A stretch of 64,000 nt of DNA from an uncultured Gammaproteobacteria bacterium (GCA_964634875.1 CAZWKA010000005.1:27167-91166), one strand, 5' to 3'. Positions 2,169-49,254 are shown, numbered from the stretch's first letter. Translations and numbers: made by a program. The notes: generated by a model not told the origin, from the sequence alone.

Positions 2169-2197
2169 AATTGGCTATAATTAGCCAAAATAGTGCG

Positions 2198-2228
2198 AAA
2201 AGGCCTTGACAAAAGGCCTTTTTTGTGC
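2198..2228 (+). terminator. rho-independent terminator of dnaJ
   Basis: Stem AAAAGGCC / GGCCTTTT with loop ttgacaaaa, followed by a T-run. Confidence 0.6.
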
Positions 2229-2234
2229 TATACT
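2206..2234 (+). promoter_or_regulatory. consensus sigma-70-type promoter (TTGACA, 17 bp, TATACT) embedded in the dnaJ terminator and facing the GC-rich island
   Basis: TTGACA at 2206-2211, a 17-nt spacer, then TATACT at 2229-2234. The same -10 hexamer recurs upstream of several genes in this window. Confidence 0.5.
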
Positions 2235-2285
2235 ATTTTGTTCGTCAAACAGACGAATTTTTTGTTTATAAAGCTCTTTAATAAT

Positions 2286-2329
2286 TTCTTACGGTGGAAA
2301 CAGGGTATCCCTTGTTTCCACCGTAAGAA
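2286..2329. repeat. perfect 17-bp inverted repeat hairpin at the left edge of the GC-rich island
   Basis: ttcttacggtggaaaca ... tgtttccaccgtaagaa, with an inner GGG/CCC pairing. Lies 30 nt upstream of the GGAGGG RBS and the ATG at 2359. No T-run follows. Confidence 0.65.
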
Positions 2330-2358
2330 CCAAACCGTTCACTGGAGGGAATTTCGTC

Positions 2359-2910
2359 ATGAAGACTGAGTCTGTCCTCGAGAGTGCCCGCAACCTCGGC
2401 CACATCACGATCACGCTCGGCTTCGCCGCGTTCATCGCTGCGATGGTCGCGAGCGGGTGCGGCACAGAGCCGGTCGGACAGGGCGACGTCGAGGTCGCGA
2501 CCCCCGCGCCCGCGCCGGATCCGCGCTTCACAGCGCCGGGCAACCCCGATTCTCCGCCTTGCTTGGGCTGCGGTTACGCAGCCACGGCTGGCGAGAGCAA
2601 GTCTGTCGCGCCGCCTGCGTCCGTCACCGTTCCCAGCGGCTTCACGCTTCCGCTCGACCTCTCCGGCACGCCCCTCAAGGCCTACCCGGCCTACTCGGCG
2701 CTCTGCCGGGGTGGGGATGTGTCTATCCTCTCGGACTGCCGCAGCCAGGAGCGCGTCTGCACCGCTCCCGAGAACTCCAACGTGGCGGTCGGCTCGATCG
2801 ATCGTCTGTGGTGTTCCGACGGAACGCAGGTCCTCATCCTCATCTGCCCCCTGGACACGAGCGGGGACACGTTCACGGTTGGTACTGAGACCTTCGCTGG
2901 CTGCCGCTAG
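2359..2910 (+). CDS. GC-rich secreted lipoprotein (island gene 1), 183 aa
   Basis: RBS GGAGGG; signal peptide with lipobox (MVASGC); Cys-rich C-terminal half. G/C at most third codon positions, contrasting with flanking genes. The overlapping same-strand ORFs at 2384..2959 and 2457..2888 are GC artefacts. Confidence 0.6.
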   Translation: MKTESVLESARNLGHITITLGFAAFIAAMVASGCGTEPVGQGDVEVATPAPAPDPRFTAPGNPDSPPCLGCGYAATAGESKSVAPPASVTVPSGFTLPLDLSGTPLKAYPAYSALCRGGDVSILSDCRSQERVCTAPENSNVAVGSIDRLWCSDGTQVLILICPLDTSGDTFTVGTETFAGCR

Positions 2911-2946
2911 CCAGCCCCCCCCGAGTCTTCGGACACGGGAGCCCTA

Positions 2947-2971
2947 CGACCCGGATTAAAAACCCGGGTCG
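2947..2971 (+). terminator. GC hairpin after island gene 1
   Basis: cgacccgg attaaaaa ccgggtcg, immediately followed by the conserved AT-rich element. Confidence 0.4.
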
Positions 2972-2974
2972 CTC

Positions 2975-3010
2975 AAATAAATTTCTAAATTTTGTTTGGA
3001 AATTTTGAGA
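2975..3010. repeat. conserved AT-rich inter-gene element, copy 1 (AAATAAATTTCTAAATTTTGTTTGGAAATTTTGAGA)
   Basis: Near-identical to 4380..4414. Internal dyad AAATTTC / GAAATTT. Confidence 0.65.
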
Positions 3011-3119
3011 GTAAGTTCTTTACAACTTAAGGCTACTTACACTCCTGTGGTTAGAACAATGCTTAATGAGTCTTGTTTCAACCACGGGAGCAATCCCATT
3101 TCCTAGGGGGAAGAACACC

Positions 3120-4307
3120 ATGAATCAGACTTTTGCCTCTGCTTTCGCCATCGCCACCACTGTCCTCTTCGGCGCATGCGGCTCGTTGCCGCGGTGGGAG
3201 GATACAATCAAGGCGCCGGCCTTCCAGGCTGTGCGTGAGATCGTGGTCGCGAACGTCCAGCTGGACAGCGCCATTACTGGTACGGCCAACGGCCGTGTCG
3301 TGGTGGCCAAAGAGAAACTGTTCGACAAGACAGTGCTCCTCGGTGCACTCGAGAGCTATGACGTCGTGAGCGGCAGCAAAATCGCTGAGCGCATCCCGAC
3401 TGGTGACTGGCGCGAGACCTGGCACAGCGGCGCGCTCGTCGCTGGTGCGAAGGGTGAGGCTCTTATCGGCCTCGGCGGCGAGTTCCGGCAGATCAACAGC
3501 GATCTCGCGGACACGCAGCGCTTCGATCAGGCCTACACCTATGTGAATCCGGTCTGGACGCCCAGCGGCTGGCTCATCGGCGGGGCGGACAAGTTCGACG
3601 GTGGCGACTCGGTGAAGTACTACTTCAACGATCCGACTGGCGATTCGCCCCCGAGCTTCGCCTTCGACGGCTGTGGCTGGGTGCGGGGCATCGCGAAGCT
3701 GGGTCACACCACCTTCGCAGTTGTCTCGCGGCGCGATGGTAACGCCAAGAACTGGTTCGAGCTGCTCACCTTCACGAAGGGCGCACAGCACGTCTATCGG
3801 GCGCTCAAGACGGACACGGGACGAGTCGGAGGCTACTGCGGCGGTCTCCAGGGTCTGGAGCTTCTCGCTATCGAAGCGGATCGTGCTCGTGAAGAGGTTA
3901 TCGTCGTGTGGTCGTTCGATAAGGACGAGAACTACGAACTCCACGTTACGGCGTTCTCTGAGGACGGCCGGTTGCTGCGGGATCAGAAGCTTCTTTCCCG
4001 CTACGAGCGCGTGTATGCGGCCAAGATCTTCCGTGGGGGAGTCGCTGTCGTCGGGCTGAGCAAGCTCGGCGCTGGTGGCTTCACGCTCAAGCTGATCTCG
4101 ACCGACAGCACCATCAAGGAAGGCGAGGCAATCCCAAATAAGGATGTTGACTCGGTGAGTTCCTTCCGGATCGCCCAGGCTGACCCGAGTCACCTGGTGG
4201 TCGCCTACACCTCGCCGAGTCGGACGGCTGCCCAGGTTCGCTCCACGGTTCTCAAGGTCTACGACCTTGGACCGGGCCCGGGAGACGAGCCGCTCCACCT
4301 CGAGTAG
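3120..4307 (+). CDS. GC-rich secreted lipoprotein (island gene 2), ~395 aa
   Basis: RBS AGGGGG then ATG at 3120 (MNQTFASAFAIATTVLFGACGS; lipobox LFGAC). The track ORF starts further upstream at 3066. The antisense ORF 3078..4298 is a typical high-GC artefact. Confidence 0.6.
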   Translation: MNQTFASAFAIATTVLFGACGSLPRWEDTIKAPAFQAVREIVVANVQLDSAITGTANGRVVVAKEKLFDKTVLLGALESYDVVSGSKIAERIPTGDWRETWHSGALVAGAKGEALIGLGGEFRQINSDLADTQRFDQAYTYVNPVWTPSGWLIGGADKFDGGDSVKYYFNDPTGDSPPSFAFDGCGWVRGIAKLGHTTFAVVSRRDGNAKNWFELLTFTKGAQHVYRALKTDTGRVGGYCGGLQGLELLAIEADRAREEVIVVWSFDKDENYELHVTAFSEDGRLLRDQKLLSRYERVYAAKIFRGGVAVVGLSKLGAGGFTLKLISTDSTIKEGEAIPNKDVDSVSSFRIAQADPSHLVVAYTSPSRTAAQVRSTVLKVYDLGPGPGDEPLHLE

Positions 4308-4350
4308 CCTTCCCCCTCATCTCTTCCGCGCTTCGGCGCGCTCGAGACCA

Positions 4351-4375
4351 ACGCCCGCGATTCACTCGCGGGCGT
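4351..4375 (+). terminator. GC hairpin after island gene 2
   Basis: acgcccgcg attcact cgcgggcgt, followed by copy 2 of the AT-rich element. Confidence 0.4.
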
Positions 4376-4379
4376 CTTC

Positions 4380-4414
4380 AATTAAATTTCTAAATTTTAT
4401 TGGAAATTTTGAGA
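4380..4414. repeat. conserved AT-rich inter-gene element, copy 2 (AATTAAATTTCTAAATTTTATTGGAAATTTTGAGA)
   Basis: Roughly 31 of 35 positions match copy 1, with the same position relative to the preceding GC hairpin. Confidence 0.65.
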
Positions 4415-4428
4415 AGCATTATAACGCT

Positions 4429-4455
4429 AACACCTTTACAAAAGGTGTTTTTTGT
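4429..4455 (+). terminator. rho-independent terminator
   Basis: aacaccttt aca aaaggtgtt followed by TTTTTT. Confidence 0.5.
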
Positions 4456-4513
4456 TATCTACTACTTTAGTCTTTAAGTCTCTGCAACGCCCACTTGTCG
4501 GAGGAAATGCAAC

Positions 4514-5701
4514 ATGCATGTTTTTCGAATCATTGGTTGGTTACTGCCCGCGTGTCTTTCTGCGTGTGGCGAACCGGGTATGACCCCAGGTGCTGCTGAC
4601 CTGCCTCCCTCGGGCGATGAGCGTGGGTGTCAGTCCTTTGGTAATGAGGTTGTTGTCCGGGATGTGCCCCTCGGCGAGACGTATCGTATCGCTGCCTTGG
4701 CGAACAGCTACCTGGTCGCCTGGCACACGAATACCCGCGATGTTCCGAGGGAAGTTAACTTCCACCTGTTTGGTCTTGGCGGAGAGGCTGTCACCACGAA
4801 CCCAGTCACGATCCCGCATGGTGAGGTTGATCTCAATTTCGTGATCGCCGGCAAGGACGGGCGTTACTACGTCCAGACGGTCGAGTCGGTGGCCGGCCGG
4901 CCGTTGTATTGGCTGCATGCGTTATCGCCCGAAGACACTACCTCCATCGTTTCGGCACCGCTCACTGAGAACATGAATGTCTCGGGGATGGCTGTTAGTC
5001 CCTGGGGCCTCCTGGCTGTTTCTGGTAGTTCGACGGCGGAAGAGAGTAGCTACGCCGTTTCGACGGTGGATGAAAAAGCTACCCTGACTCATTTCGCTGA
5101 GATCCGTGAGGCGGGCACGACGTGTCCGGTCGTATCTGCGGTTGCCGCGAGCCATAATCAGCTTGCGATCGCTGCGGTGCGTGAAACGACGAGGGGTACG
5201 AGGAAGCTGAGCGTCATCATCCGTTCGGCAGACGGTTCGGTGAACGATGTTCTTATCGAGGAGCACCAGCGGGTAGCGCTCGAAGAGGCGTTCTACTGCG
5301 CGTCGTACGCTGTTTACATCAAGAAGCTCTTCGCCCTGCCCGACGGTTCGTTTGGTGTGTGGTGGTGGGACTATCGCGTCGCTGGCTACTACCTGACCGT
5401 TGTGTCGAACACTGGCGTTGCTGGTCCGGCGCGTCGAATCAAGCCGGTTCAGTTCCCGGGCATCTCTGATTTGGCTTGGGTGGAAGGTGATTTCGTTGCC
5501 AGCGTCTACCAGTACAACGGTCGGCCCGATGAAGTCGGTATTCTGCGTCTGCAGCTTGACCTGGAGGTTGAGACGAGCGACTACCTGAAGCTGGGCATCG
5601 ATAGTTGGGAGGCACCAAAGATCGCTTCCACAGGGCGACACTTGGCCGTCGTGCGCAATTCGCTTGAGTCACCCGCGGTCTACTTTCTCGCCTGCCGTTA
5701 G
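4514..5701 (+). CDS. GC-rich secreted lipoprotein (island gene 3), 395 aa
   Basis: RBS GGAGG; signal peptide with lipobox (LSACG); GC-rich codons; the antisense ORFs here are artefacts. Confidence 0.6.
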   Translation: MHVFRIIGWLLPACLSACGEPGMTPGAADLPPSGDERGCQSFGNEVVVRDVPLGETYRIAALANSYLVAWHTNTRDVPREVNFHLFGLGGEAVTTNPVTIPHGEVDLNFVIAGKDGRYYVQTVESVAGRPLYWLHALSPEDTTSIVSAPLTENMNVSGMAVSPWGLLAVSGSSTAEESSYAVSTVDEKATLTHFAEIREAGTTCPVVSAVAASHNQLAIAAVRETTRGTRKLSVIIRSADGSVNDVLIEEHQRVALEEAFYCASYAVYIKKLFALPDGSFGVWWWDYRVAGYYLTVVSNTGVAGPARRIKPVQFPGISDLAWVEGDFVASVYQYNGRPDEVGILRLQLDLEVETSDYLKLGIDSWEAPKIASTGRHLAVVRNSLESPAVYFLACR

Positions 5702-5769
5702 GCGATTTTGGCAATTTAGTGCCATCCCCAATCTATATTGGGCATGCGTGCGGACATGTTGCCCTCCGC

Positions 5770-5810
5770 TTTTCTCTTGAGCGCTTACGTATTAAGCTCT
5801 CAAGAGAAAA
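5770..5810 (+). promoter_or_regulatory. long hairpin between island gene 3 and the ECF sigma promoter
   Basis: ttttctcttga gcgcttacgtattaagc tcaagagaaaa forms an 11-bp perfect outer stem plus inner pairing. It may terminate the island transcript or act as an operator for the sigma gene. Confidence 0.4.
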
Positions 5811-5850
5811 ATTGTTTACCCTGATATTTTTTGGTAAACTACAGATTGTT

Positions 5851-6363
5851 ATGGCTTTTACTAAAAATGATTTTGAAAAGTTTTATAACGATCACTTTGA
5901 TAAAGTGTATCGTTTTATTTTCTTTCGGATTGGCAGCAACAAAGATGTGGCCGAGGATTTGGTATCCGAGATTTTTATGAAAGCGCTCAAAGCGTTCGAA
6001 ACGTATGACCCGAAGGTCAGCCAGTCAGCATGGATCATGACGATCGCAAAACATCATCTCCTTAATTACTGGAGGGATCGTAAAAATGCGGTGCCACTGC
6101 CCGGAAGCGAGATGTCCCAAGAAAATGGTGTGTTGGATAGTTTTTGGCTTAAAAGCGCTCTGTTACAGTTTGGTGTCCAAAAGGAGAAATGGCACGTAAC
6201 CGAACTTTTATTAAAATTAGAAACAAACGAGCGGGAAATTGTAACTTTTCACTACCTTTTGGGGTATAGTTATTTAGAGATTGCTGAACTGCGGGGTCAA
6301 AGCGAAGGGGCGGTAAAAGTTGCAGCCCACCGAGCGATTAAAAAAATGCGTGATTGGTTATGA
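5851..6363 (+). CDS. ECF-type RNA polymerase sigma factor
   Basis: Sigma-70 region 2 (YDPKVSQSAWIMTIAKHHLLNYWRDRKN) and region 4 HTH (EREIVTFHYLLGYSYLEIAELRGQSEGAVKVAAHRAIKKM). The ATG at 5851 follows a TTGTTT...TAAACT promoter. The track ORF start at 5719 is a GTG extension. Confidence 0.8.
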   Translation: MAFTKNDFEKFYNDHFDKVYRFIFFRIGSNKDVAEDLVSEIFMKALKAFETYDPKVSQSAWIMTIAKHHLLNYWRDRKNAVPLPGSEMSQENGVLDSFWLKSALLQFGVQKEKWHVTELLLKLETNEREIVTFHYLLGYSYLEIAELRGQSEGAVKVAAHRAIKKMRDWL

Positions 6364-7109
6364 AATTTTTACTAAAATACAATTTAAGAAAAATGGGTAA
6401 AGCCCTGAAGGCCGAGCCTGCTTTTAAGCAAATGCTGTGGGCGGTGCTCGAAAAATCTTTGGATACTTCCCGTGCGCCGAGAGTTTTGTGGTACCAAGGA
6501 TATGTTTTTCGGGTGGCAACTGCTTTTGTGCTTGCTGCTGTAGTTGTTGGTGCAACAGGCGCCTATGCTTATGCGAGTCCCACAGTTACCGAGGGTACTG
6601 TTTTGTACCCAGTAAAAAAGACACTGGAGAAAGTGGGGGAGAAATTACAGGTCACGCCCGAGAAGAAAGCGGTCTTTTTGTTAAAACAGATCGATCGCCG
6701 CGAGGCTGAGAAAAAAGTTCTGGAGACGAAGCATCAGCCCATCCAAAACATTGAGACAGCGATTGGGAGTACTGAACAAAAGCTCGAGACAGCGAGCGCG
6801 GCACTTAAGGCGACGCCAAAGAAAAATCCGGCTTTACTTAAAAAAGTTGAGAAACGTTTGACGGAGCGCCAAGAACGGCTTGAAAAAGCCAAACGTGAAT
6901 TGGAAAAACGCCTAGAAAAACGGGAAGAACGTGATGAGGATGATAGTGAGGGGAAGGAAGAAAAGAAAAGGGAAGAGAGTGGTGTTATAGAGCAGCTCGG
7001 TGAGAAATTGTTACAAGATAAACCTGTGGAGTCACGCGAGCAGAAAAAAGACTTGGAAGACGTGGTGCAGGAGAGTGTTGAGGAAAGGCTTATGGATCGG
7101 CTCAGATGA
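6360..7109 (+). CDS. putative membrane-spanning anti-sigma factor
   Basis: Its ATG overlaps the sigma TGA (ATGA). Short cytoplasmic N-terminus, one TM helix (VATAFVLAAVVVGATGAYAYA), and a charged coiled-coil ectodomain. Confidence 0.5.
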   Translation: MKFLLKYNLRKMGKALKAEPAFKQMLWAVLEKSLDTSRAPRVLWYQGYVFRVATAFVLAAVVVGATGAYAYASPTVTEGTVLYPVKKTLEKVGEKLQVTPEKKAVFLLKQIDRREAEKKVLETKHQPIQNIETAIGSTEQKLETASAALKATPKKNPALLKKVEKRLTERQERLEKAKRELEKRLEKREERDEDDSEGKEEKKREESGVIEQLGEKLLQDKPVESREQKKDLEDVVQESVEERLMDRLR

Positions 7110-7115
7110 TAGTTC

Positions 7116-7155
7116 TAAAAAAGAATGCCTCTTAGTTTAAGAGGCATTCTTTTTG
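7116..7155. terminator. bidirectional rho-independent terminator
   Basis: An A-run, the stem agaatgcctctta gtt taagaggcattct, then a T-run. It serves the convergent anti-sigma and rnhA genes. Confidence 0.65.
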
Positions 7156-7156
7156 T

Positions 7157-7564
7157 CTATCTTTTGACTGCTGCATCAAGTATTTTGTTAACCTCGGCAT
7201 CGGCTTCTTTGTTGCCCGCGCGCAGCGTGTGGCGATAGGTAACTTTTTTGAATTTGGTGGAGAGGTTATAAGCTGCGAGCCATAATTTTTGGAGCGTCGG
7301 TTCTTTGACGCGGTATTCACGACGCATCTGTTTGACAGCAAGCTCGCTGTCGAGAATGCAGTCGACTTCAGTGGCGCCGAGCTCGAGCGCTTTTTCGAGG
7401 GCGAGAATGAGTGCGGTGTATTCGGCAAAGTTGTTGGTCTGTGTGCCTAGGTATTTACCAAAGGCTGCAACGACTTCCTGATGCTCGTTTTTGACCACAA
7501 CTCCAGCCGCCGAAGGTCCAGGGTTTCCACGTGAGCCGCCATCGGTAAAAGTAATAAGTTTCAT
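7157..7564 (-). CDS. rnhA: ribonuclease HI
   Basis: ITFTDGGSRGNPGP... matches the RNase H catalytic fold pattern (DGS.GNPGP, downstream E, D..D). The likely start is M at 7564 (MKLITFTDGG). Confidence 0.8.
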   Translation of the reverse strand: MKLITFTDGGSRGNPGPSAAGVVVKNEHQEVVAAFGKYLGTQTNNFAEYTALILALEKALELGATEVDCILDSELAVKQMRREYRVKEPTLQKLWLAAYNLSTKFKKVTYRHTLRAGNKEADAEVNKILDAAVKR

Positions 7565-7707
7565 AAAAATTAGAGTTGCCATTTCCGTACAGGCTTGCCA
7601 GTACGGTAGACGGGCGGGAAGGTAAGAAGGTAGGTTGCGTGTACCAAACCCCGGATTCCCATCTGCGTGTGAATGACAGTATTAAAAATAAAAAGAGTTT
7701 TTATTTT

Positions 7708-9072
7708 TTAGTATTCCATCCGCCAGAGTCCTTCTTTTCCACTAACAGCTCCAGAAAAATAGAGGAGGCGGTTTTCGCTATCAGCCCCCAGCCCGGTGAG
7801 TTGGCTATTGCTCAAAATATCTTGAGTGACGAGGTAGTAGGGGAATAGGACGGAAATCTTGTTATCGGCACGCAGGGCGACAGTATTATACTCATCAATA
7901 AAAACCGCTTGCCGGAGTGCAATACCCGAGCGGTTGAGGAGGTATGGGTCACTGCCACCTAAAGATGACCATAATTCCCAGGGGTTCCACAGCAGCCACC
8001 AACCGCTGGCAGAAGCGGTAAAATTTTCGGTGGGCACAACAAAAGATCTTGTAGGATTAACGAGCAGCATGCGCGATCCTTGCTCTTCGCTGATAAGGAC
8101 GGTGTTATTCTGGATGAGGCGCAACCGGAGGTTGGTGCGTGTTGTTTCTTCAAGTGATTGGCTGGTAATGGTCGCGAAGGTGTTGATGAAGCCGAGTGTG
8201 TCGCGTTTGATCGTAATTTCGTTGGTGCTCGTAGTAAGATTCATTGTCCACAATTGTCCACCGTTAAAATACCAGTCAAGATACGTGTTGGTCGTGAGTG
8301 TGGTGGTCTCTTCAAGGTTGGTGTCGGCGGCGCGGATTTGGGCCGTGGTACTATAATACAGGGTATGGTCGTTTTCAGAGTCCCAGAGAAATTTGTTAAT
8401 CGGACTTTTTTCGAGTGCTGCAAGATCCCATTTTTTTTCGGGGTTGGCGGTTTTTACCACGATGAGTTGGGTATACGGCGCGAGGGTGGTGTGGATGCTG
8501 AAAAAAACATTATTTTTCGACCAACTTACTGCTGTAGAGGTCGTATAGCTAAGTCCGGTGAGGATAGTTTCTTCCTGGCTGAGTGTATTTTTTAGGACAA
8601 GATCTGGGGTAGTTTTTTTACTGTATATGAGGTAGTTTCCGTCGGGGCTGGTTGAAAGGAGTGTCGCAGCGTCTTCGGTAAGTAGTATCGGTTCGGCTTT
8701 TTTGATGAGTGTAACGTCTTTTATGTAAATAGTCTGTTTGCTTTTAACGGTGATTTCTTGTTGCCAGTCGTAATAGCCGCTTCGCTCAATGCGCAGGTTA
8801 TATGATGAGGGGGCGACATTTTTGAGGCGGACAGGGATTTTTTCGTTAATTTCTTCGCCATTTAAAAATACCGTAGCGTCTTGAGGGAGCACGTCGATGC
8901 TGAGTGCGCCAATTTCTTTGATGAGTCCGCTCTGCCAATCGTAGCGGTAACCAACGGTGTAGAGAACCAAAAGCGGAGTAATGATTAAAAAAAGACCTAA
9001 AAACAGCGCCAGCAATAATTGGCGCCGACGTTTTGTTAGGGTGCTTCCGGGGTATTCCATACAGGAACTCAA
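7708..9072 (-). CDS. membrane-anchored PEGA-domain protein with a large beta-rich C-terminal region
   Basis: N-terminal TM helix, then a PEGA-like unit (DVLPQDATVFLNGEEINEKIPVRLKNVAPSSYNLRIERSGYYDWQQEI), then ~330 aa rich in Ser/Thr/Trp/Tyr. Confidence 0.55.
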   Translation of the reverse strand: MSSCMEYPGSTLTKRRRQLLLALFLGLFLIITPLLVLYTVGYRYDWQSGLIKEIGALSIDVLPQDATVFLNGEEINEKIPVRLKNVAPSSYNLRIERSGYYDWQQEITVKSKQTIYIKDVTLIKKAEPILLTEDAATLLSTSPDGNYLIYSKKTTPDLVLKNTLSQEETILTGLSYTTSTAVSWSKNNVFFSIHTTLAPYTQLIVVKTANPEKKWDLAALEKSPINKFLWDSENDHTLYYSTTAQIRAADTNLEETTTLTTNTYLDWYFNGGQLWTMNLTTSTNEITIKRDTLGFINTFATITSQSLEETTRTNLRLRLIQNNTVLISEEQGSRMLLVNPTRSFVVPTENFTASASGWWLLWNPWELWSSLGGSDPYLLNRSGIALRQAVFIDEYNTVALRADNKISVLFPYYLVTQDILSNSQLTGLGADSENRLLYFSGAVSGKEGLWRMEY

Positions 9073-9208
9073 AAGTCTGGGAGCCTAAAGTTAAAAGTCG
9101 CACGTTGCCTTATAAAATCGGTGCCTGGGGGACTTTTGAGCTTTTGACTTTATAGTCTATTAAAGGTATAGTTAATCATAAGCTAAAAAGACTTTTCAGT
9201 CAAAACCT

Positions 9209-10516
9209 ATGCCTTATTTAGTAATACAGGGCGGTAAAAAATTACACGGCGAAATCGTTAACCAGTCTAACAAGAACTCGGCAATTTCGATTTTGTGTGC
9301 GACTCTTATGGTGCGCGGCAAGACGACTTTGACCGATGTCCCCGAAATTCAAGAGGTGGAGCGGATGGTAGAGCTCCTGACCAGTATTGGGGTGGTTGTT
9401 ACTAGGCCCAAATCCCACACGATCGTGGTCGATGCGAGCCGCGACCTCACCATGGAAACGATTGACCGTAAGATCTGCGAAAAGGTTCGAGCGTCGCTGT
9501 TGTTATGCGGGGCGTTAGCGGCGCGTGAGAAAAGTTATAAATTATACAAATCAGGTGGTTGTCGGCTTGGCGAACGCACGGTCAGGCCGCATTGGTATGC
9601 TCTTAAAAAATTGGGCGTTTCAGTTATTTCTCGCGACGCGTATTATGAAGTCGAGCGCACAAGGCCGCTCGCAGCTGCACGTATTGTTATGTACGAGTCG
9701 GGGGATGCCGCTACGGAAAATACGATCATGGCCGCCGTCCTTGCACCGGGCACAACAGTGATCACAATGGCATCGGCCAATTATATGGTGCAGGATCTGT
9801 GTTATTTTTTGGTGAAGGCCGGGGCAAAAATTAAGGGTATCGGATCGACCACACTCACGATTACCGGTGTCAAGGAATTGCGGCCGGTCAAGGAATATCC
9901 GATCATGCCAGATCCTATTGTGGCCATGACTTTTTTATCAGCGGCAATTGCAACCGGATCGACACTGACGGTCAAAAATTGTCCACTGGAGTTTTTGGAA
10001 TTAGAGCTGTGCAAACTTGAGATAATGGGGCAAAAGTTTAAGGTTGATCACGAACGGACATCTAAGAACGGACATTTTATCATTGTTGACGTTACCGTTG
10101 AACCGAGTAAGCTTACAGCGTTACCCGATAAAATTTACGGGCGTCCATTCCCGGGTTTAAACATCGATAACCTACCGTTGTTCGTACCGATTCTGACCCA
10201 AGCAAGGGGTCGTACGCTCGTTCATGACTGGGCGTATGAGAATCGGGCGATCTACAGTTTGGAGCTTCAGAAGCTGGGTGCGCAAATTACGCTCTTAGAC
10301 CCACACCGGATGTGGGTAGAAGGTCCGGTTAAATTATTGCCGAACGAAGTGATATGTCCGCCCGCCCTTCGCCCTGCAGTGAATGTGCTCATTTGTATGT
10401 TAGCTGCCAAAGGGAAATCTATTTTGCGCAACACTGCTATGATCGACCGGGGCTATGAAAATTTGTATGAAGTATTGAATAAAGCAGGAGCGGATATTAC
10501 TCTTGTGAAAGAATAG
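9209..10516 (+). CDS. murA: UDP-N-acetylglucosamine 1-carboxyvinyltransferase
   Basis: Colinear with MurA: KNSAISILCATLM matches KNAALPIL; the catalytic-Cys loop KSGGCRLGERTVRPH is present; C-terminal IDRGYENLYEVLNKAGADI. Confidence 0.9.
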   Translation: MPYLVIQGGKKLHGEIVNQSNKNSAISILCATLMVRGKTTLTDVPEIQEVERMVELLTSIGVVVTRPKSHTIVVDASRDLTMETIDRKICEKVRASLLLCGALAAREKSYKLYKSGGCRLGERTVRPHWYALKKLGVSVISRDAYYEVERTRPLAAARIVMYESGDAATENTIMAAVLAPGTTVITMASANYMVQDLCYFLVKAGAKIKGIGSTTLTITGVKELRPVKEYPIMPDPIVAMTFLSAAIATGSTLTVKNCPLEFLELELCKLEIMGQKFKVDHERTSKNGHFIIVDVTVEPSKLTALPDKIYGRPFPGLNIDNLPLFVPILTQARGRTLVHDWAYENRAIYSLELQKLGAQITLLDPHRMWVEGPVKLLPNEVICPPALRPAVNVLICMLAAKGKSILRNTAMIDRGYENLYEVLNKAGADITLVKE

Positions 10517-10519
10517 TAT

Positions 10520-11191
10520 ATGGAAGGAAATAAATTTAGGCCACGTGAAACAGTAACGCAAGGTGAGCAAGCGAGGGAATTTGTCAATCAGGCTCGAGAA
10601 AAACTTTCTGAGCTTGAAACACTTGTGGCACACCTGGAGACTATGTCTGCGGGAGATGCTGCTATGCCTGCCAAGCAAGCAGTGCGCGAAACTGATCTAG
10701 GCAAACGACTTGCTAAACTTCTTTTGACACTCGACACTTTGGCTGGTCCAGAAAAAGGGGAGCGTGAAAAATGGATGCAGGCATGTTTAACAAAGACAGC
10801 GGATGTCTTTGAAGGTAATGATTCTGTTTTGCGCATTCTTGGAAAAGATAAACATAGTTTTAGTACCTTTGAAAGGGATTTCTGGCACCGAGATAACCGT
10901 CGTTTCCCCATTCATTTTTTAGGACAACTGCTTCTCGAGGCTGAAACATTGTTTGAAAATAAGGGTATTGGACCAAAAGTGCAAGAGGTGATTGAGCTTG
11001 GTTTAGCGTCCCGAGGTTTGTCGGTGAAAACAAAATTACCTGAGGATTTTAAGCATGATTTAGTTGCTAAACTTTCTCCTTTAATAAAAGCGGAATTGCA
11101 GAAAGAAGGGTATAGCAGATATTACCAAGATCCGCGTGAAAAACCCCTAACTGTTGATGCATATTTGTCAAAACTTATTGAACCTAAATAA
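10520..11191 (+). CDS. hypothetical protein, 223 aa
   Basis: ORF tightly following murA; no recognisable motif. Confidence 0.5.
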   Translation: MEGNKFRPRETVTQGEQAREFVNQAREKLSELETLVAHLETMSAGDAAMPAKQAVRETDLGKRLAKLLLTLDTLAGPEKGEREKWMQACLTKTADVFEGNDSVLRILGKDKHSFSTFERDFWHRDNRRFPIHFLGQLLLEAETLFENKGIGPKVQEVIELGLASRGLSVKTKLPEDFKHDLVAKLSPLIKAELQKEGYSRYYQDPREKPLTVDAYLSKLIEPK

Positions 11192-11197
11192 AATTTT

Positions 11198-12454
11198 ATG
11201 GAACCTACTGTGTCACCGATCCAAGCTAAAGCAAACAAATATTTTGGCACGTACTTGGCTATTATTTTGTTTGTCGTTGCTTTTGGTCTCGGCCTTTTGG
11301 CGGGGCGCAACTTATATTTTAAAAAATACGTTACCAATGCCGAAGGTATCGTTACGACTGATAACGTTTTGGTTAACGGTACTGCTCTCCATGCAACTGA
11401 TGTTGATTTTAATCAGTTTTGGAAAGTATGGGATCAAATCAAAGCAAAGTATGTTAAGCAGCCAGTGTCAGACAAAGATTTGCTGACTGGCGCCATGCAG
11501 GGGTTGGTCGCATCGCTTAACGACCCCTATTCTTTGTTTCTTCCGCCACAAGAAGCAACGGATTTCACCAAAGACCTGGCTGGTGAACTCGAAGGTATCG
11601 GGGCTGAGATCGGGGTAAAAAATAGCCAGCTCATGATTATTTCGCCTATCCCAGAAACACCCGCAGAAAAGGCAGGGCTTCAGCCAGGGGACAAGATTCT
11701 GCTTATTAATAAAGAATCAACGGTAGGGATGGACGCGGGGACGGCGGTAAAAAAGATCCGTGGTAAAGCAGGTACGCAAGTCGTTTTGAATATTATGCGC
11801 GATAGCTGGTCGGCGCCACGGGATATTACTATCACGCGCCAGAAAATTGTCGTGCCTTCGGTTGTATTTACAATGAAACCGGGAAATATCGCGTATATCC
11901 AAGTGTTGCAGTTTAACGATACCACGATGGGTAAGTTTGGACAGGCGATTGATCAGGCCAAGAAAAATAAGGCTGTCGGGATTGTGCTCGACCTTCGCAA
12001 TAATCCTGGTGGGTACCTAGATACGGCGATTGAAATGGCGAGTGAATGGATACCGGACGGCGGGGTGATTGTGAGTGAAAAAGGGTTAAGCGCTCTCAAC
12101 AATACCCACGAAAGTATTGGTCGACACCGTTTGGTTGGTATTAAAACCGTTGTCCTTATCAACAAAGGCTCAGCTTCAGCCTCCGAGATTGTAGCTGGTG
12201 CGCTCCAAGATAATAAAGCCGCCACCTTGGTTGGTGAAAAATCTTTTGGTAAAGGATCGGTTCAGGATTACGAGAATTTCCCTGATGGATCGGCGCTAAA
12301 ATTAACCGTTGCCGAATGGTTCACGCCGAACGGTAAGAATATTAATAAAGAAGGTATCTTACCAGATGTGGAAGTAAAGGAGGATTTTGAGAAAGATAAG
12401 ATTGGGCAGGATAAGCCGCTCGATAAGGCGCTGGAGCTTTTGAAGAAAAAATAA
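11198..12454 (+). CDS. carboxyl-terminal processing protease (S41 family) with a PDZ domain
   Basis: N-terminal TM, a PDZ-like segment, and the S41 core (GIVLDLRNNPGGYLDTAIE; SASASEIVAGALQD). Confidence 0.85.
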   Translation: MEPTVSPIQAKANKYFGTYLAIILFVVAFGLGLLAGRNLYFKKYVTNAEGIVTTDNVLVNGTALHATDVDFNQFWKVWDQIKAKYVKQPVSDKDLLTGAMQGLVASLNDPYSLFLPPQEATDFTKDLAGELEGIGAEIGVKNSQLMIISPIPETPAEKAGLQPGDKILLINKESTVGMDAGTAVKKIRGKAGTQVVLNIMRDSWSAPRDITITRQKIVVPSVVFTMKPGNIAYIQVLQFNDTTMGKFGQAIDQAKKNKAVGIVLDLRNNPGGYLDTAIEMASEWIPDGGVIVSEKGLSALNNTHESIGRHRLVGIKTVVLINKGSASASEIVAGALQDNKAATLVGEKSFGKGSVQDYENFPDGSALKLTVAEWFTPNGKNINKEGILPDVEVKEDFEKDKIGQDKPLDKALELLKKK

Positions 12455-12461
12455 ACCAAAT

Positions 12462-12488
12462 AAAAAACCGCCTTTAGGGCGGTTTTTT
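12462..12488. terminator. bidirectional rho-independent terminator
   Basis: AAAAAACCGCC TTTAG GGCGGTTTTTT between the convergent ctp-like and era genes. Confidence 0.65.
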
Positions 12489-12490
12489 AT

Positions 12491-13387
12491 TTACAAGCGT
12501 TCTTCCCAACGTTTGTCGTACTCAACGTCGAGTTCGAGGAAGACTTTTTTGTTGATGGCTTGCTCAAGTTCTTTGCGAGCCGCGATGCCGATTTCTTTGA
12601 TGGCCCGGCCGCCAGCGCCGACGATCATGCCTTTATATTTTTTATTGTAGGTGTAGACAAAAGCTTTGATAACTAAGACGTCTGGCTTTTCTTCGATGGA
12701 GTCAATTTCGACGTGGGTCGAGTAGGGGATTTCTTTGCGCAGGGCTAAGAACACTTTCTCGCGGATAATTTCGGAGATCCAGAAATTTTTATCAACGTTC
12801 GTCAGTTGGTCTGGTGGGTAGAGTGGCTCTCCAATAGGTAGTAGTTCGAACACGCGTTTAACGAGTGGTTGGATGTGGCGGTTCATGAGAGCAGAGAGCT
12901 CATAGACGCCGTCAAAGTCATCGGCGAGCGCAAGGTACTCTTCTAGGTATTTTTTTTCAGTAGCAGGGAGGTCGGATTTATTAATGACCATGAGTTTTGG
13001 TACTTGCAAATGCCGGAGCAGTGATAGGATCGAGCGTTCTTCCGCGCCAATTGATTTGGTAGGGTCAGCGACATAGACGACGACGTCAATATCTTTGACA
13101 GCTTCGTGAACGGTTTTCGTGAGTTTGCTCGAAAGAATAGTGTGGCGTTCTTTGAAGACGCCGGGGGTGTCAACAAACACAATCTGTCCTTCGGCGCCAT
13201 TTAAGACACCGTGGATATTGTTGCGGGTGGTTTGAGGTTTATCGGTTACAGCCGAGATCTTGGTACCAACCAGGGTGTTGATGAGGGTTGATTTACCGGC
13301 ATTGGAACGGCCAATAATCGAGACAATGCCCGATTTTAGGTTGGTGGTTGGTTCGGCTGCCGGAGGCGGCGTAGTCTTTTTAGCCAT
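12491..13387 (-). CDS. era: GTPase Era
   Basis: G1 GRSNAGKST, G3 DTPG, G4 NKSD, and a C-terminal KH domain; ~300 aa. Confidence 0.9.
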   Translation of the reverse strand: MAKKTTPPPAAEPTTNLKSGIVSIIGRSNAGKSTLINTLVGTKISAVTDKPQTTRNNIHGVLNGAEGQIVFVDTPGVFKERHTILSSKLTKTVHEAVKDIDVVVYVADPTKSIGAEERSILSLLRHLQVPKLMVINKSDLPATEKKYLEEYLALADDFDGVYELSALMNRHIQPLVKRVFELLPIGEPLYPPDQLTNVDKNFWISEIIREKVFLALRKEIPYSTHVEIDSIEEKPDVLVIKAFVYTYNKKYKGMIVGAGGRAIKEIGIAARKELEQAINKKVFLELDVEYDKRWEERL

Positions 13388-13466
13388 AAGGTTAGAAGCT
13401 TGTCTTTTTAACGTGGGTATACTATACTACCTCTTGGAATTAAGCAAGAAATAGCCTGTTTTTGTT

Positions 13467-46992: not shown

Positions 46993-47021
46993 TTGTTAAT
47001 TTTGGCTAATAGCTGTATACT
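46993..47021 (+). promoter_or_regulatory. promoter TTGTTA, 17 bp, TATACT
   Basis: Ends 10 nt upstream of the ATG at 47032. Its -35 is the TTG alternative start of the over-extended track ORF. Confidence 0.45.
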
Positions 47022-47031
47022 AGGGGTAAAT

Positions 47032-49254
47032 ATGGATAGTATCGACCAAACAGAAAACGAAAAGCTGGCTGCCTCAATTGATCCGACAATCAATTTTTTT
47101 GGCATGACTAATTACCGGAACCAGAACCGGCGTTTTGGTATTAAGATTGATGACCGGCGCCGTCATATGTATTTGGTGGGGAAGACAGGTATGGGTAAAA
47201 CCACCATTCTTGAGAACATGGTTATTAACGATATTTATTCCGGCCACGGTATTGGGCTGGTAGATCCGCATGGCGACTTTGCCGAAAAGGTGCTTAACTT
47301 TGTTCCCGCTAACCGTATTAACGATATTGTCTATTTCAATCCTTCGGATATTGATTATCCGATTGGGTTTAATATTTTGGAATCAATTAACCCCGATTAC
47401 AAACACTTAGTGACCTCGGGTCTGATGGGTGTCTTTAAAAAGATTTGGCCAGACGTCTGGAGTGCCCGTATGGAATATATTTTGAATAATACGATTTTGG
47501 CGCTGTTAGATTTTCCAGGTACGACACTCTTGGGTATTAACCGTCTACTTGCTGATAACGAGTACCGCAAGCGAGTGGTTGCCAACCTAAAAGATCCGGT
47601 GGTCAAAGCTTTTTGGCAAACTGAGTTTGCGGGATACAGCGATAAATATAAGCAAGAAGCCGTTGCGCCTATCCAAAACAAGATTGGTCAATTTTTGTCA
47701 GCATCAATTATCCGCAACATTGTGGCTCAGGTCAAATCGCGTATCGATATCCGCGAGATTATGGACAGCAAGAAAATTTTTATTATGAACTTGTCCAAAG
47801 GGCGCATTGGTGAAGATAACTCGCGCCTCCTGGGCGGTATGCTTATTACCAAGATCCAGCTTTCGGCCATGGAGCGTGTCGATATAATTGAAAAAGACCG
47901 TAAAGATTTCTTTTTGTATGTTGACGAGTTCCAAAACTTTGCCACGGAAAGTTTTGCGAATATTTTGTCCGAAGCCCGTAAGTACCGCCTTGATTTGATT
48001 ATGGCACACCAGTACATGGAACAGCTTGATGAAAAGGTGTTGGCGGCGGTTATTGGTAACGTTGGTACTATGGTTACCTTCCGAGTAGGATCGAGTGATG
48101 CCGAAATTTTGGCTAAAGAATTTATTCCAACATTTGTGGAAGAAGATTTAGTTAACTTGCCCAAGTACCATGTTTATTTAAAACTCATGATTGACGGTGT
48201 TGCGTCGCGACCATTTAGCGCAATGACCTTGCCGCCTATTGGCAGTCCAACCGGAAGCTTGGAGAAAGTAATACGCGTTTCGCGTGAACGCTATGCAGTT
48301 AATCGCAATACCATTGAAGATAAGATTGCAAAATGGAGTGGTATGCTTATAAATGCCGAAGACGTTGAGGCAGAAATGGCGCTTGGTCCCGATGTAGTTA
48401 CTTTTAAAGAAGATTTACCTCCGAAGCCAGCGGTTGTGCCTCCACCTCTGGCTAATGTCTCAACTCCACTTCCTGTCGTACCGCCCGCTCCGGCTAGTGT
48501 CCCAAAACCGGCTGAAAACCGTACTCCAGCTGCCCCAGCATCGCCGGTTCCGCCGAGTTTGGTAAGTGCTCAGCAGCAACGTGCCGTGTATGTTAATCGG
48601 ACTACTCCTTTGCCAGCATCTTCGCCTGCTGTAAGGTCGCCGCAATTACAGCCAATGCGTGAGCCGCAGCGGGATACTTTTCAGCGTCCGCCGCAGCTTC
48701 GTGATCAATCTGCCGCTGGTTTAGGCTCTGCAATGGGTGCAGATGGCGAGCGAAGAAAAAAGCGGCGGCGCAAAAAGAAAGGTTCTGGTTCGGGCTCCTT
48801 GCCCTCACAAGGGGAACAAGTGCTCTTGGTTGATCCGGCACAACAGGGGATATCGCTTAGCGCCATGCTTCCTAAAAACGCGCCGCAGAATGACCGGTCG
48901 CGAGACATTCGTCCGCCTCGGCAGCCGCAGGCACCACAACAGCCAACGAGCATGCCCGAACAACGCCAGGGTGAGCGCCGCGAGCAGTCGGGTGCACCTG
49001 AGCCAATTAATTTGGGTAGCCCGGTACAGCCTCGTGAACAACCGCCAGTACAACCACCTGCGCCTGCTGCACCCCGTCCAGCGCCAGTTGCACCACCGAC
49101 ATCAGCTGTTCCGACGGCTCCGCCACCACCTGCTCCAATGGCACCGCCACCGCAGCCTCGGCCCGAACCGCCACCAACACCGCCAGCTCTTCGTCCCGAA
49201 CAGCAACCAACCCAATTACAGCCGGGGCAAGTCGTAAAGCTTGATATACATTAA
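47032..49254 (+). CDS. orphan VirD4/TraD/TrwB-like (FtsK-HerA superfamily) P-loop ATPase with a ~300-aa Pro/Gln/Ala-rich disordered C-terminal tail
   Basis: Walker A LVGKTGMGKTT and Walker B FFLYVDEFQNF, ~430-aa core. The tail (from ~aa 450) is low-complexity PPAPA-type with an RKKRRRKKK cluster. Confidence 0.65.
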   Translation: MDSIDQTENEKLAASIDPTINFFGMTNYRNQNRRFGIKIDDRRRHMYLVGKTGMGKTTILENMVINDIYSGHGIGLVDPHGDFAEKVLNFVPANRINDIVYFNPSDIDYPIGFNILESINPDYKHLVTSGLMGVFKKIWPDVWSARMEYILNNTILALLDFPGTTLLGINRLLADNEYRKRVVANLKDPVVKAFWQTEFAGYSDKYKQEAVAPIQNKIGQFLSASIIRNIVAQVKSRIDIREIMDSKKIFIMNLSKGRIGEDNSRLLGGMLITKIQLSAMERVDIIEKDRKDFFLYVDEFQNFATESFANILSEARKYRLDLIMAHQYMEQLDEKVLAAVIGNVGTMVTFRVGSSDAEILAKEFIPTFVEEDLVNLPKYHVYLKLMIDGVASRPFSAMTLPPIGSPTGSLEKVIRVSRERYAVNRNTIEDKIAKWSGMLINAEDVEAEMALGPDVVTFKEDLPPKPAVVPPPLANVSTPLPVVPPAPASVPKPAENRTPAAPASPVPPSLVSAQQQRAVYVNRTTPLPASSPAVRSPQLQPMREPQRDTFQRPPQLRDQSAAGLGSAMGADGERRKKRRRKKKGSGSGSLPSQGEQVLLVDPAQQGISLSAMLPKNAPQNDRSRDIRPPRQPQAPQQPTSMPEQRQGERREQSGAPEPINLGSPVQPREQPPVQPPAPAAPRPAPVAPPTSAVPTAPPPPAPMAPPPQPRPEPPPTPPALRPEQQPTQLQPGQVVKLDIH

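Follow-up and report, generated by a model that had tools for sequence, protein, structure and literature searches.

The interval between dnaJ and an ECF sigma gene in the window (the whole 64-kb stretch of DNA that was analysed) appears, on balance, to be a flexible expression locus for surface lipoproteins, whose position, flanked by dnaJ and an ECF sigma/anti-sigma pair, is fixed in a small uncultured clade. The dnaJ|ECF-sigma locus was found in five related lineages (A to E), and cassette number, identity and order all vary between them at this one locus. Both flanks were seen and are conserved in lineages A to D, and the sigma-side flank alone was seen in lineage E, so that conserved core flanks enclose non-homologous content, as in flexible genomic islands. 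According to the first-pass annotation, it would speak against cassette-like acquisition if all relatives carried these three genes separated by identical spacers, and this is not what the five lineages show; its proposal of a recurring, native-looking cassette scaffold agrees with relatives that differ in their cassettes and share a scaffold of approximately 90% identity. The host clade is probably Patescibacteria/Saccharibacteria-like, judging from gene content and a GC content of 47%; the MAGs L002 (the lineage-B sister) and L003 (more distant) are labelled Gammaproteobacteria. The arrangement in the lineages is as follows.

Lineage A (the 64-kb window): cassette order ORF1-ORF2-ORF3
Lineages B and C: cassette order ORF1-ORFX
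Lineage D: an ORFX-like cassette (41% identity) in position 1 and an ORF3 homologue (43% identity) in position 2, the last
Lineage E: first cassette unseen, then block S2, ORFX and the sigma gene

The features of the locus in the window, in order, are given below.

2171-2188 (+), AT-rich hairpin immediately following the dnaJ stop codon, where scaffold block S1 begins; kept in A to D with one compensatory pair change
2198-2234 (+), predicted terminator/promoter module 1: 10-bp stem, -35 TTGACA in the loop, T-run, extended -10 TGcTATACT
2241-2257 (+), small second hairpin and T-run in the predicted 5' leader; stem preserved in lineage D by a compensatory change
2286-2329 (+), 20-bp hairpin in the 5'UTR of the first cassette; folding z = -5.9 against shuffles
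2359-2910 (+), cassette 1, ORF1: Cys-rich lipoprotein of 183 aa, TAG stop
2911-2947 (+), ORF1-linked 3' segment: C-tract and hairpin hpA (2921-2938, UUCG loop)
2948-2970 (+), GC hairpin hpB, start of block S2; conserved in A to E regardless of the upstream ORF
2972-3011 (+), AT-rich dyad, copy 1; nearly invariant among six copies
3042-3119 (+), 5'UTR of cassette 2: long hairpin (3042-3090) plus RBS
3120-4307 (+), cassette 2, ORF2: lipoprotein of 395 aa, predicted all-beta; present in lineage A alone
4308-4375 (+), 3' tail of cassette 2: C-tract, hpA (4327-4340, UUCG loop) and hpB2 (4351-4375); architecture like that of the first tail
4376-4416 (+), AT-rich dyad, copy 2; forms with copy 1 direct repeats that bracket the lineage-specific ORF2 cassette
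4423-4479 (+), predicted terminator/promoter module 2: stem 4429-4449, TTTACA in the loop, -10 region 4455-4464
4514-5701 (+), cassette 3, ORF3: lipoprotein of 395 aa
5770-5810 (+), island-closing 18-bp hairpin immediately before the sigma-gene promoter; conserved in part with lineage D
5812-5840, predicted sigma-gene promoter, just downstream of the island-closing hairpin
5851-6363 (+), ECF sigma factor (Pfam match), the right flank; syntenic in all lineages
6354/6393-7109 (+), DUF5667 protein (Pfam match), read as the anti-sigma factor of the adjoining ECF sigma; syntenic in all lineages

The non-coding scaffold was compared between lineages A and B, where S1 and S2 are 91% identical, against 0.41-0.86 for other intergenic regions and no more than 0.35-0.47 at the 4-fold sites of native genes. 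Within S1, lineages C and D have replaced a GC by an AU pair in the module 1 stem, a compensatory change, and the 2286-2329 hairpin has both-sided changes at four pairs across four lineages. Altogether the four S1 stems carry seven compensatory pairs; the S1-wide covariation score was reached by 0 of 500 shuffles, and slid controls gave none. The left boundary had been described as a consensus promoter with a perfect 17-bp hairpin. The predicted promoter 1, TTGACA-17-TGcTATACT at 2206-2234 (11/12 matches in the scan, plus TG), and the hairpin are both there, but the hairpin is a 20-bp stem that includes one G-U pair.

Block S2 is made up of hpB, the AT-rich dyad of approximately 40 nt and a second predicted terminator/promoter module. 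This module is present at only two sites in the window, 4423-4479 being the sole paralogue of module 1, and the 34-nt core of module 2 (CACCTTTACA...TCTACTA) is matched at all aligned bases between A and B, with identity lost right past the -10 region. The sequence of the hpA segment changes whenever the upstream ORF changes, while hpB and the dyad track position and not the ORF; lineages B to E have this element once each, between the cassettes. Only the two dyad copies were found in the 64 kb, and since copy 2 carries a 1-nt deletion, an ungapped search detects one copy only. The AT-rich palindrome earlier noted in both internal spacers is a shared scaffold element, though the scaffold is not purely AT-rich, as the GC hairpin hpB belongs to it. 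The unit that is swapped comprises an ORF together with its RBS and its first 3' hairpin, with the non-coding scaffold staying in place. The element also occurs at the murA|ctpA junction of L003, a distant relative; at that junction the window has an extra ORF.

If hpB and the dyad were an attachment site for a recombinase encoded elsewhere, and cassettes moved as units by integron-like logic, several of these features would be accounted for: the direct element copies that bracket the lineage-A-only ORF2 cassette, the near-invariance of the element in six copies beside adjoining stems that covary (a pattern typical for a protein-recognition site), its presence in L003 at murA|ctpA, and a cassette order that is not constant between lineages. 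Such a site-specific system is nonetheless doubtful. The 64-kb window, and the 8-10 kb next to the locus in lineages B and D, yielded no tyrosine or serine recombinase, and no attC R'' (RYYYAAC)/R' (GTTRRRY) core pairs came up when 2169-5850 was scanned on both strands with a regular expression. There are only two element copies in 64 kb, and the single, position-bound element between cassettes in B to E fits a fixed scaffold better than a travelling site. No integrase, transposase or recombinase domain was detected in window ORFs of at least 90 aa, consistent with the statement in the first-pass annotation that the window holds no integrase; its integron-like reading did not hold up, as neither IntI nor an attC core pair was found.

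Three independent assemblies have contigs that stop at hpB, as could be expected if GC-rich foreign reads had been joined to an AT-rich genome in assembly or binning. This is extremely improbable, since a Logan contig identical to the window at all bases spans ORF2, ORF3, the sigma gene and beyond, and the same mosaic architecture recurs in the assemblies of at least five lineages, which come from separate studies. The contigs break at hpB because the scaffold is common to co-occurring lineages; SRR12762304 contains both A and E.

As had been reported, each of the three ORFs has a Shine-Dalgarno site and a lipobox cysteine; the former lie at 2346, 3106 and 4500, the latter at residue 34 in ORF1 (ASGC), residue 20 in ORF2 (FGAC) and residue 18 in ORF3 (LSAC). 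Lipoboxes were matched with a regular expression ([LVI..][ASTVI..][GAS]C) and no dedicated predictor, which gave four at residues 18-34, VVAC being the fourth. That the three proteins are not obviously paralogous was confirmed using BLASTP and hhalign, which link nothing beyond the signal peptides. The cassette ORFs fall into at least four mutually unrelated lipoprotein families that are GC-rich, fast-evolving and found in this clade only. No homologue of ORF2 was found in 5.8 billion proteins by a word-indexed search or among 1.84 billion representative proteins by exhaustive HMMER; its structure model is of low confidence (pLDDT 47), with weak beta-propeller matches. Relatives of ORF1, ORF3 and ORFX were found at this locus in this clade only, and no phage or plasmid relatives of the cassette ORFs were found. 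Between lineages the island families are 39-62% identical, compared with 94-95% for DnaJ, and the dN/dS of ORF1 is 0.64 against 0.03-0.13 for native genes. Orthologues of ORF1 are 62% identical in lineage B and 74% in lineage C, where the allele is mosaic.

The 5'UTRs of ORF1 and ORF2 are homologous (local alignment score of 18 versus 8.4 +/- 1.6 for shuffled sequence, with 0/2000 shuffles reaching 18). Together with the shared 3'-tail architecture, the duplicate terminator/promoter module and the very fast protein divergence, this would suit an origin in which a single ancestral lipoprotein cassette (5'UTR, ORF and tail) was duplicated in tandem and its coding parts then underwent runaway divergence under diversifying selection. 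We consider such an origin quite unlikely, as profile-profile comparison aligns the signal peptides only and the family lengths are far apart (183, 253-261 and 395 aa). Each family is also still recognisable across lineages, so that divergence alone has not wiped out homology on this time scale.

The strikingly high GC content first noticed by eye in the three ORFs was verified against the 54 remaining window ORFs (GC 0.464 +/- 0.024, GC3 0.455 +/- 0.056). ORF1 has a GC of 0.679 and a GC3 of 0.837, ORF2 0.623 and 0.775, and ORF3 0.583 and 0.657, corresponding to z = 5.0-9.0 for GC and 3.6-6.8 for GC3. GC1, GC2 and amino-acid usage are shifted as well, with G, A and V up and K halved, and the positive GC skew of the window is absent from the island (-0.05 to +0.05). 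The spacers had been called AT-rich; this is true of their greater distance from the stop codon (GC 0.32-0.37) but not of the first 65-73 nt past each stop, which contain two hairpins and have a GC of 0.66-0.67. A fourth GC-rich gene lies in the window at 62006-63211(-), and further single GC-rich genes occur in these genomes, such as a queuosine-precursor transporter (TIGR00697, GC3 0.74-0.78).

The first-pass annotation had attributed this composition to coding sequences that entered native intergenic DNA one ORF at a time from high-GC donors, for example an actinobacterium that serves an epibiont as host. GC, GC3, GC1/GC2, amino-acid usage and GC skew do all look foreign, other single GC-rich genes such as the TIGR00697 transporter exist in these genomes, and cultivated Saccharibacteria, which live on Actinobacteria, are naturally competent (PMC10633639). 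Recent independent transfers of this kind are nevertheless improbable. The search results for all four families, confined as they are to this locus and clade and without phage or plasmid relatives, give no sign of an actinobacterial or other host donor, and GC-rich genes elsewhere in the genome keep their synteny between lineages B and D and have co-diverged. The cassette families recur and remain GC-rich in lineages whose 4-fold sites are near saturation, so that the data do not support a fresh import from such a host; under neutral amelioration since the lineage splits, GC3 would be expected at or below approximately 0.63 (an F81-based estimate), and 0.66-0.80 is observed. GC-richness of the cassette pool is instead a long-standing property, which may be kept up by selection, by GC-biased conversion at a hot spot of recombination, or by renewal via exchange.

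Homologous recombination inside the conserved scaffold is the most likely mechanism of cassette exchange. In the lineage C genome L004, ORF1 matches the window at 94-96% identity over its 5' 130 nt, although the dnaJ of L004 is only approximately 80% identical, and the remainder of the gene is 98-100% identical to lineage B; the allele is an inter-lineage mosaic. Between lineages A and B, 4-fold-site identity is 0.67 in ORF1 and 0.35-0.47 in native flanking genes. For Saccharibacteria, both natural competence and homologous recombination have been documented (PMC10633639). No direct recombination event was observed, the lineage-D contigs all being clonal, and the motif copies flanking ORF2 show no clean hybrid-site signature. 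As the homology arms are short (approximately 40-100 nt), RecA-dependent exchange would be inefficient. We propose that DNA taken up from related lineages would recombine within the scaffold, so that cassettes may be exchanged, gained or lost. The predicted promoter 1 would transcribe cassette 1 and, because the tail hairpins are not followed by a T-run, would read through into cassette 2 in lineage A; module 2 would then end this putative transcript and initiate a new one for the last cassette. The outcome would be variable exposed surface proteins.

Flexible (replacement or additive) genomic islands with cell-surface genes have been described as metagenomic islands of marine and halophilic prokaryotes. 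Like them, the locus has conserved core flanks, unrelated content in close relatives, surface products, atypical composition and presumed exchange through homologous recombination in the flanks. It differs in being tiny (2-3 genes), in that the parts that vary are individual ORFs, each lying between structured intergenic modules that are conserved inside the island, and in a composition that is above and not below genome GC and persists over deep splits. The Mycoplasma vsa, vsp and vpma loci are variable surface-lipoprotein clusters of small-genome, host-dependent bacteria, with conserved 5' non-coding regions and paralogous genes that undergo site-specific inversion via an adjacent recombinase. 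Clustering of variable surface-lipoprotein genes, the conserved 5' non-coding regions and, probably, a small-genome, host-dependent carrier are shared with the present locus, but its genes are unrelated, and an inversion switch of this type was rejected, as all cassettes are on the + strand with no recombinase adjacent. Integron arrays and CALINs resemble it in having single-ORF cassettes, foreign in composition and for the most part without known function, structured lineage-typical repeats between them, content that differs among relatives, and a cassette without a recognisable promoter. They were also rejected, since here neither IntI nor an attC core pair was found, the conserved element follows position and not the ORF, and promoters lie within the array. 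A diversity-generating retroelement, which would have a reverse transcriptase and a template/variable repeat pair, was ruled out, as there is no reverse transcriptase domain in the window and the ORFs contain no long direct repeats; no phage signal was found.

In Borrelia, the vls locus of the surface lipoprotein VlsE has a G+C of 49% versus 28.6% for the genome, an excess of approximately 20 points that is conserved across species and has been interpreted as selection-maintained and linked to recombination (PMC11499132). Both are variable surface-lipoprotein loci with elevated G+C. However, vls consists of one expression site with paralogous silent cassettes, a GC skew of 0.52 and G-runs, whereas the cassettes here belong to unrelated families, have an RBS and a start codon apiece, and show a skew of about 0. 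Silent-cassette donation of the vls type was rejected for the window, as it has no paralogous copies and the families are unrelated.

A more far-reaching interpretation, which we put forward tentatively, is that the locus represents an undescribed Patescibacteria-like gene-cassette platform, in which single ORFs are exchanged on a fixed scaffold of a conserved structured junction (the GC hairpin and the AT-rich dyad) and two terminator/promoter modules, and a locus-specific process keeps these ORFs 12-22 GC points above the genome over evolutionary time. By analogy with Borrelia vls, a recombination hot spot with GC-biased conversion could be responsible, or selection coupled to the exchange mechanism. 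If this interpretation is true, the locus would be an independent case linking composition to surface variation, and cassette capture might here follow a non-integron route.

The island between dnaJ and the ECF-sigma gene is made up of three genes for predicted lipoproteins, ORF1, ORF2 and ORF3, whose composition was compared with that of the 54 other ORFs of the window, which has an overall GC content of 47%.

Composition of the island ORFs and of the other ORFs in the window
2359-2910, +, ORF1: GC 0.679, GC3 0.837
3120-4307, +, ORF2: GC 0.623, GC3 0.775
4514-5701, +, ORF3: GC 0.583, GC3 0.657
Whole window, 54 other ORFs: GC 0.464 +/- 0.024, GC3 0.455 +/- 0.056

The first-pass annotation had described these ORFs as strikingly GC-rich against their surroundings, and the z-scores (5-9 for GC, 3.6-6.8 for GC3) bear this out. 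The shift extends to codon positions 1 and 2, amino-acid usage is altered, with G, A and V raised and K halved, and the island does not share the positive GC skew seen elsewhere in the window. As the same annotation had claimed, a Shine-Dalgarno site was found upstream of each ORF and a lipobox cysteine in each product (residue 34 in ORF1, 20 in ORF2 and 18 in ORF3), and the proteins are not obviously paralogous, no kinship beyond the signal peptides being detected among them by BLASTP or profile-profile comparison. All island ORFs of lineages A (the window), B and E, three of the five related lineages that hold the locus, stop at TAG, as does a fourth GC-rich gene of the window, ORF4 (window positions 2910, 4307, 5701 and 62006; positions 10621 and 11560 of the lineage B contig L005); native window ORFs use TAG in 13 of 55 cases, TAA in 37 and TGA in 5. 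The TAG rule is not absolute, since TGA closes the ORF3-like gene of lineage D.

The ORFs are set in a non-coding scaffold consisting of two conserved blocks, S1 after dnaJ and S2 before the last gene.

Elements of the non-coding scaffold
2171-2188: AT hairpin after the dnaJ stop codon (S1)
2198-2234: predicted terminator/promoter module 1, a stem with TTGACA in its loop, 17 nt, then TGcTATACT; 11/12 promoter matches (S1)
2241-2257: small second hairpin and T-run (S1)
2286-2329: 20-bp hairpin, then the ribosome-binding site (RBS); folding z = -5.9 (S1)
2948-2970 and 4351-4375: copies of hpB, the GC hairpin that starts S2
2972-3011 and 4376-4416: AT-rich dyad of ~40 nt, able to fold on itself
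4423-4479: predicted terminator/promoter module 2, before ORF3; a paralogue of the post-dnaJ module with compensatory stem changes

The order 3' of both ORF1 and ORF2 is TAGCC, a C-tract, hpA (the first 3' hairpin, with a UUCG loop), hpB and the dyad, so that the GC hairpin followed by an AT-rich dyad reported for both internal spacers was recovered (2948-3011 and 4351-4416). The spacers had also been called AT-rich, which holds for most of their length (GC 0.32-0.37) but not for the first 65-73 nt (0.66-0.67); likewise, the hairpin and the predicted promoter placed at the left boundary are both present, but the hairpin is of 20 bp rather than 17. The 5'UTRs of ORF1 and ORF2 are homologous over the 3' arm of a long hairpin, the RBS and the ATG (0/2000 shuffles reached the score). 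No further copy of the terminator/promoter module was found in the window besides the two listed. The dyad was rejected as a dispersed repeat, there being no copy beyond the two in 64 kb and a metagenome scan yielding nothing beyond chance matches (contigs of 23-37% GC). A reading of it as a sigma-70, ECF or sigma-54 promoter was also rejected on visual inspection, since it lacks a conserved -10 at fixed spacing; the absence of a dyad from the sigma gene's own promoter counts against this role as well. An inverted-repeat pair at the two ends of the island (2172-2191 with 5705-5724) is absent from the sister lineage and was judged to be due to chance. An Rfam search of the whole 64 kb gave nothing at the gathering score, including no tRNA, rRNA or known riboswitch, and the sub-threshold matches were generic hairpins. 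A relatively GC-rich intergenic segment of 143 nt between the RNase H and PEGA-domain genes (7565-7707) had no Rfam match, and its counterpart in lineage B is only 9 nt long.

Relatives were found by a dyad scan of the genome collection, by cluster look-ups of the flanking housekeeping proteins and by exact-protein look-ups, and the same dnaJ/ECF-sigma locus was recovered in four further lineages, giving a comparison of five lineages, each apparently clonal in the data.

Cassettes at the dnaJ/ECF-sigma locus
Lineage A (window): ORF1, ORF2, ORF3
Lineage B (L002, L005, L006): ORF1 (62% identity), then ORFX, an unrelated 253-aa lipoprotein
Lineage C (L004): ORF1, then ORFX
Lineage D (L018-L027): ORFX-like gene (41%) first, then ORF3-like gene (43%)
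Lineage E (L028): contig begins in S2, then ORFX (64% to B), then the sigma gene

The lineages differ in how many cassettes they carry, in which ones and in their order, the kind of shuffling that the first-pass annotation had suggested looking for in sister genomes, and ORF2 is unique to the window. The scaffold, in contrast, is conserved in all of them; S1 and S2 are 91% identical between lineages A and B, compared with 0.41-0.86 in other intergenic regions and 0.35-0.47 at native 4-fold sites. In the four S1 stems, seven pairs have changed on both sides in four sequences and 97.7% of cells are paired; 0/500 shuffles reached this covariation score, and slid controls gave none. The dyad is almost invariant, its sole variation turning U-A pairs into U-G. 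Both hpB and the dyad come after ORF1 in lineages A-C but after the ORFX-like gene in lineage D, and so are tied to the position and not to the ORF. The variable unit comprises the RBS, the ORF and the hpA region. On the 3' side of module 2, identity between lineages ends just past the -10 region, and the last swapped unit therefore corresponds approximately to the whole transcribed region.

A Logan contig (SRR12762304) reproduces window positions 2951-13465 with zero mismatches. In three independent assemblies the contigs stop no more than a few bases apart, at the 5' edge of hpB, between CTACGACCCGG and ATTAAAA (contigs L001 and L029, both from SRR12762304, L007 and L028). SRR12762304 contains both lineage A and lineage E, whose S2 sequences have more than 31 nt in common, so these breaks are likely to be graph branch points caused by the scaffold common to the lineages, and are not evidence of a chimera.

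Outside the island, the window has an extra AT-rich ORF of 223 aa (10520-11191, +; GC3 0.30; no family match) between murA and an S41 peptidase gene, which is absent from lineages B, D and E; at the corresponding murA/ctpA junction the distant relative L003 carries a copy of the dyad (L003 4380-4427). Both L002/L005 (CAZINT010000001.1) and L003 (CAZILH010000012.1) encode a DUF5667 protein by the ECF sigma gene, a PEGA-domain protein and small proteins, and they are syntenic with the window; their gene content looks Patescibacteria-like, and the title 'uncultured Gammaproteobacteria bacterium' that both records bear is probably wrong. The window likewise encodes a PEGA-domain protein, a TrwB-like coupling protein and a DUF5667 protein that is taken to be an anti-sigma factor, and its GC content matches the 47% reported for G1 Saccharibacteria (PMC7427843). 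These features suggest a Patescibacteria/Saccharibacteria-like affiliation.

An acquisition from a high-GC actinobacterial donor had been suggested, and nothing in the searches points to one. No homologue of ORF2 was found in a word-indexed search of 5.8 billion sequences, nor did HMMER find one when run exhaustively against 1.84 billion representatives. For ORF1 and ORF3, hits in the word-indexed protein search were limited to clade members or the query; for ORF3 the search gave only the query, missing a 396-aa homologue of 43% identity (L018/L019) in the same collection that was found through synteny. This miss weakens the claims of absence for ORF1 and ORF3, and the ORFan status assigned to them was partly wrong. 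Pfam and NCBIfam gave nothing above threshold for any island ORF, and searches of PDB by sequence and by profile gave either no match or none of significance. A phage origin was rejected, with no IMG/VR relatives of ORF2, ORF3 or ORF4 and a best PHROG match that was not significant (E = 0.03), as was a plasmid origin, with no PLSDB relatives of ORF2. Single-sequence AlphaFold models were of low confidence (pLDDT 47 and 36) and matched only beta-propellers in Foldseek (TM about 0.25), which is no more than a hint that the fold is all-beta and perhaps propeller-like.

Lineages A, B and D are about equidistant (DnaJ 94-95% amino-acid identity), and native 4-fold sites exceed the identity expected at saturation by only 0.05-0.36. 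Protein identity within the island families is much lower than that of DnaJ, at 39-62%, and dN/dS is 0.64 for ORF1 versus 0.03-0.13 for native genes. In all lineages these families remain GC-rich (GC3 0.66-0.84). From a model of the F81 type we infer that the fraction of an initial composition excess still present in one lineage is the square root of the excess identity, which is 0.11 for ORF3 (A vs D) and about 0 for ORFX (B vs D). On this argument, based on few 4-fold sites (58-99), neutral amelioration since the splits predicts a GC3 of ~0.63 or less, even from a start of ~1, while values of up to 0.77-0.80 are observed (ORF3, ORFX); either the genes have therefore not simply descended vertically, or something keeps them GC-rich.

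In lineages B and D, synteny and co-divergence are also seen for two other GC-rich genes: a queuosine-precursor transporter (TIGR00697; L005 3952-4635, L018 3470-4153; GC3 0.74 and 0.78, 85% identity), which exceeds the neutral GC3 expectation only marginally, and a small ORF (GC 0.60-0.69) between a Band_7-family gene and hrcA (L005 1240-1557, L018 1094-1300). Persistent GC-rich genes are thus a feature of these genomes beyond the lipoprotein locus. ORF4 (62006-63211, -; GC 0.60, GC3 0.77; 368-401 aa) has no signal peptide recognisable by eye. It is preceded by a predicted terminator and a TTGACA-17-TATACT promoter, both of native type, and GC hairpins follow it; it had no Pfam, NCBIfam, PHROG, PDB or IMG/VR match, and the dyad is absent nearby. 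A local GC peak of 0.55-0.65, especially at 48400-49250, is accounted for by the low-complexity composition of a ~280-aa Pro/Gln/Ala-rich C-terminal tail in the TrwB/VirD4-like type IV coupling protein (gene 46993-49254, +), and not by a foreign gene.

Exchange at the locus was seen in the ORF1 allele of lineage C. Over its first ~130 nt, L004 ORF1 has 94-96% identity to the window, although the identity of L004 dnaJ to the window is only ~80%; the remainder of L004 ORF1 matches lineage B at 98-100%. This mosaic sequence directly shows recombination between lineages, and the 4-fold identity of ORF1 between A and B (0.67) is above that of flanking genes.

The anatomy of the locus, its pattern of conservation, the cassette differences and the mosaic allele are features of the sequences themselves, and a mechanism may be proposed from them. 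Promoter 1 is predicted to drive cassette 1 and, in the window, to read through into ORF2, because there is no T-run after the tail hairpins and no recognisable promoter in spacer 1. The tail hairpins may serve as 3' stabilisers or processing sites, and module 2 is predicted to stop the transcript and restart transcription for the last cassette. Related lineages would take up each other's DNA and exchange cassettes by homologous recombination within S1, S2 and the sigma flank; for Saccharibacteria, both competence and homologous recombination have been documented (PMC10633639). The direct dyad copies around ORF2 fit equally well its gain by recombination at the dyad or its loss in other lineages. 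A recombinase encoded elsewhere and acting on the invariant dyad is a possible but less likely alternative to homologous exchange, to which the dyad at the murA/ctpA junction of L003 lends support; the earlier statement that the window has no integrase was confirmed and extends to transposase and reverse transcriptase, RecJ and RecR being the only recombination proteins it encodes.

The likeness to an integron cassette array did not hold, as both IntI and attC cores are absent, and a diversity-generating or other retroelement was rejected since there is neither a reverse transcriptase nor template/variable repeats. The locus also fails the tested defining features of inversion switches; its behaviour resembles that of a flexible genomic island for surface proteins, on a very small scale. 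In composition, the system nearest to it is Borrelia vls, a variable surface-lipoprotein system ~20 GC points above its genome and apparently held there by recombination-tied selection (PMC11499132). Unlike vls, the locus described here has unrelated cassettes, no GC skew and, in the window, no silent copies.

Patescibacteria make up a large, mostly uncultured share of bacterial diversity; those in cultivation grow attached to host cells. For the surface molecules that mediate or diversify this contact, the locus is a concrete and compact candidate: a conserved scaffold, predicted to direct expression, with interchangeable lipoproteins found only in the clade, and amenable to testing by the natural-transformation genetics that now exist for Saccharibacteria. 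It also poses an evolutionary puzzle, in that single ORFs with sharp boundaries stay strongly GC-rich in a 47% GC genome, and do so in lineages between which synonymous sites are near saturation. Atypical composition is routinely taken as a sign of recent horizontal transfer, and choosing among selection, biased gene conversion and continual exchange at this locus would inform how such composition is read.
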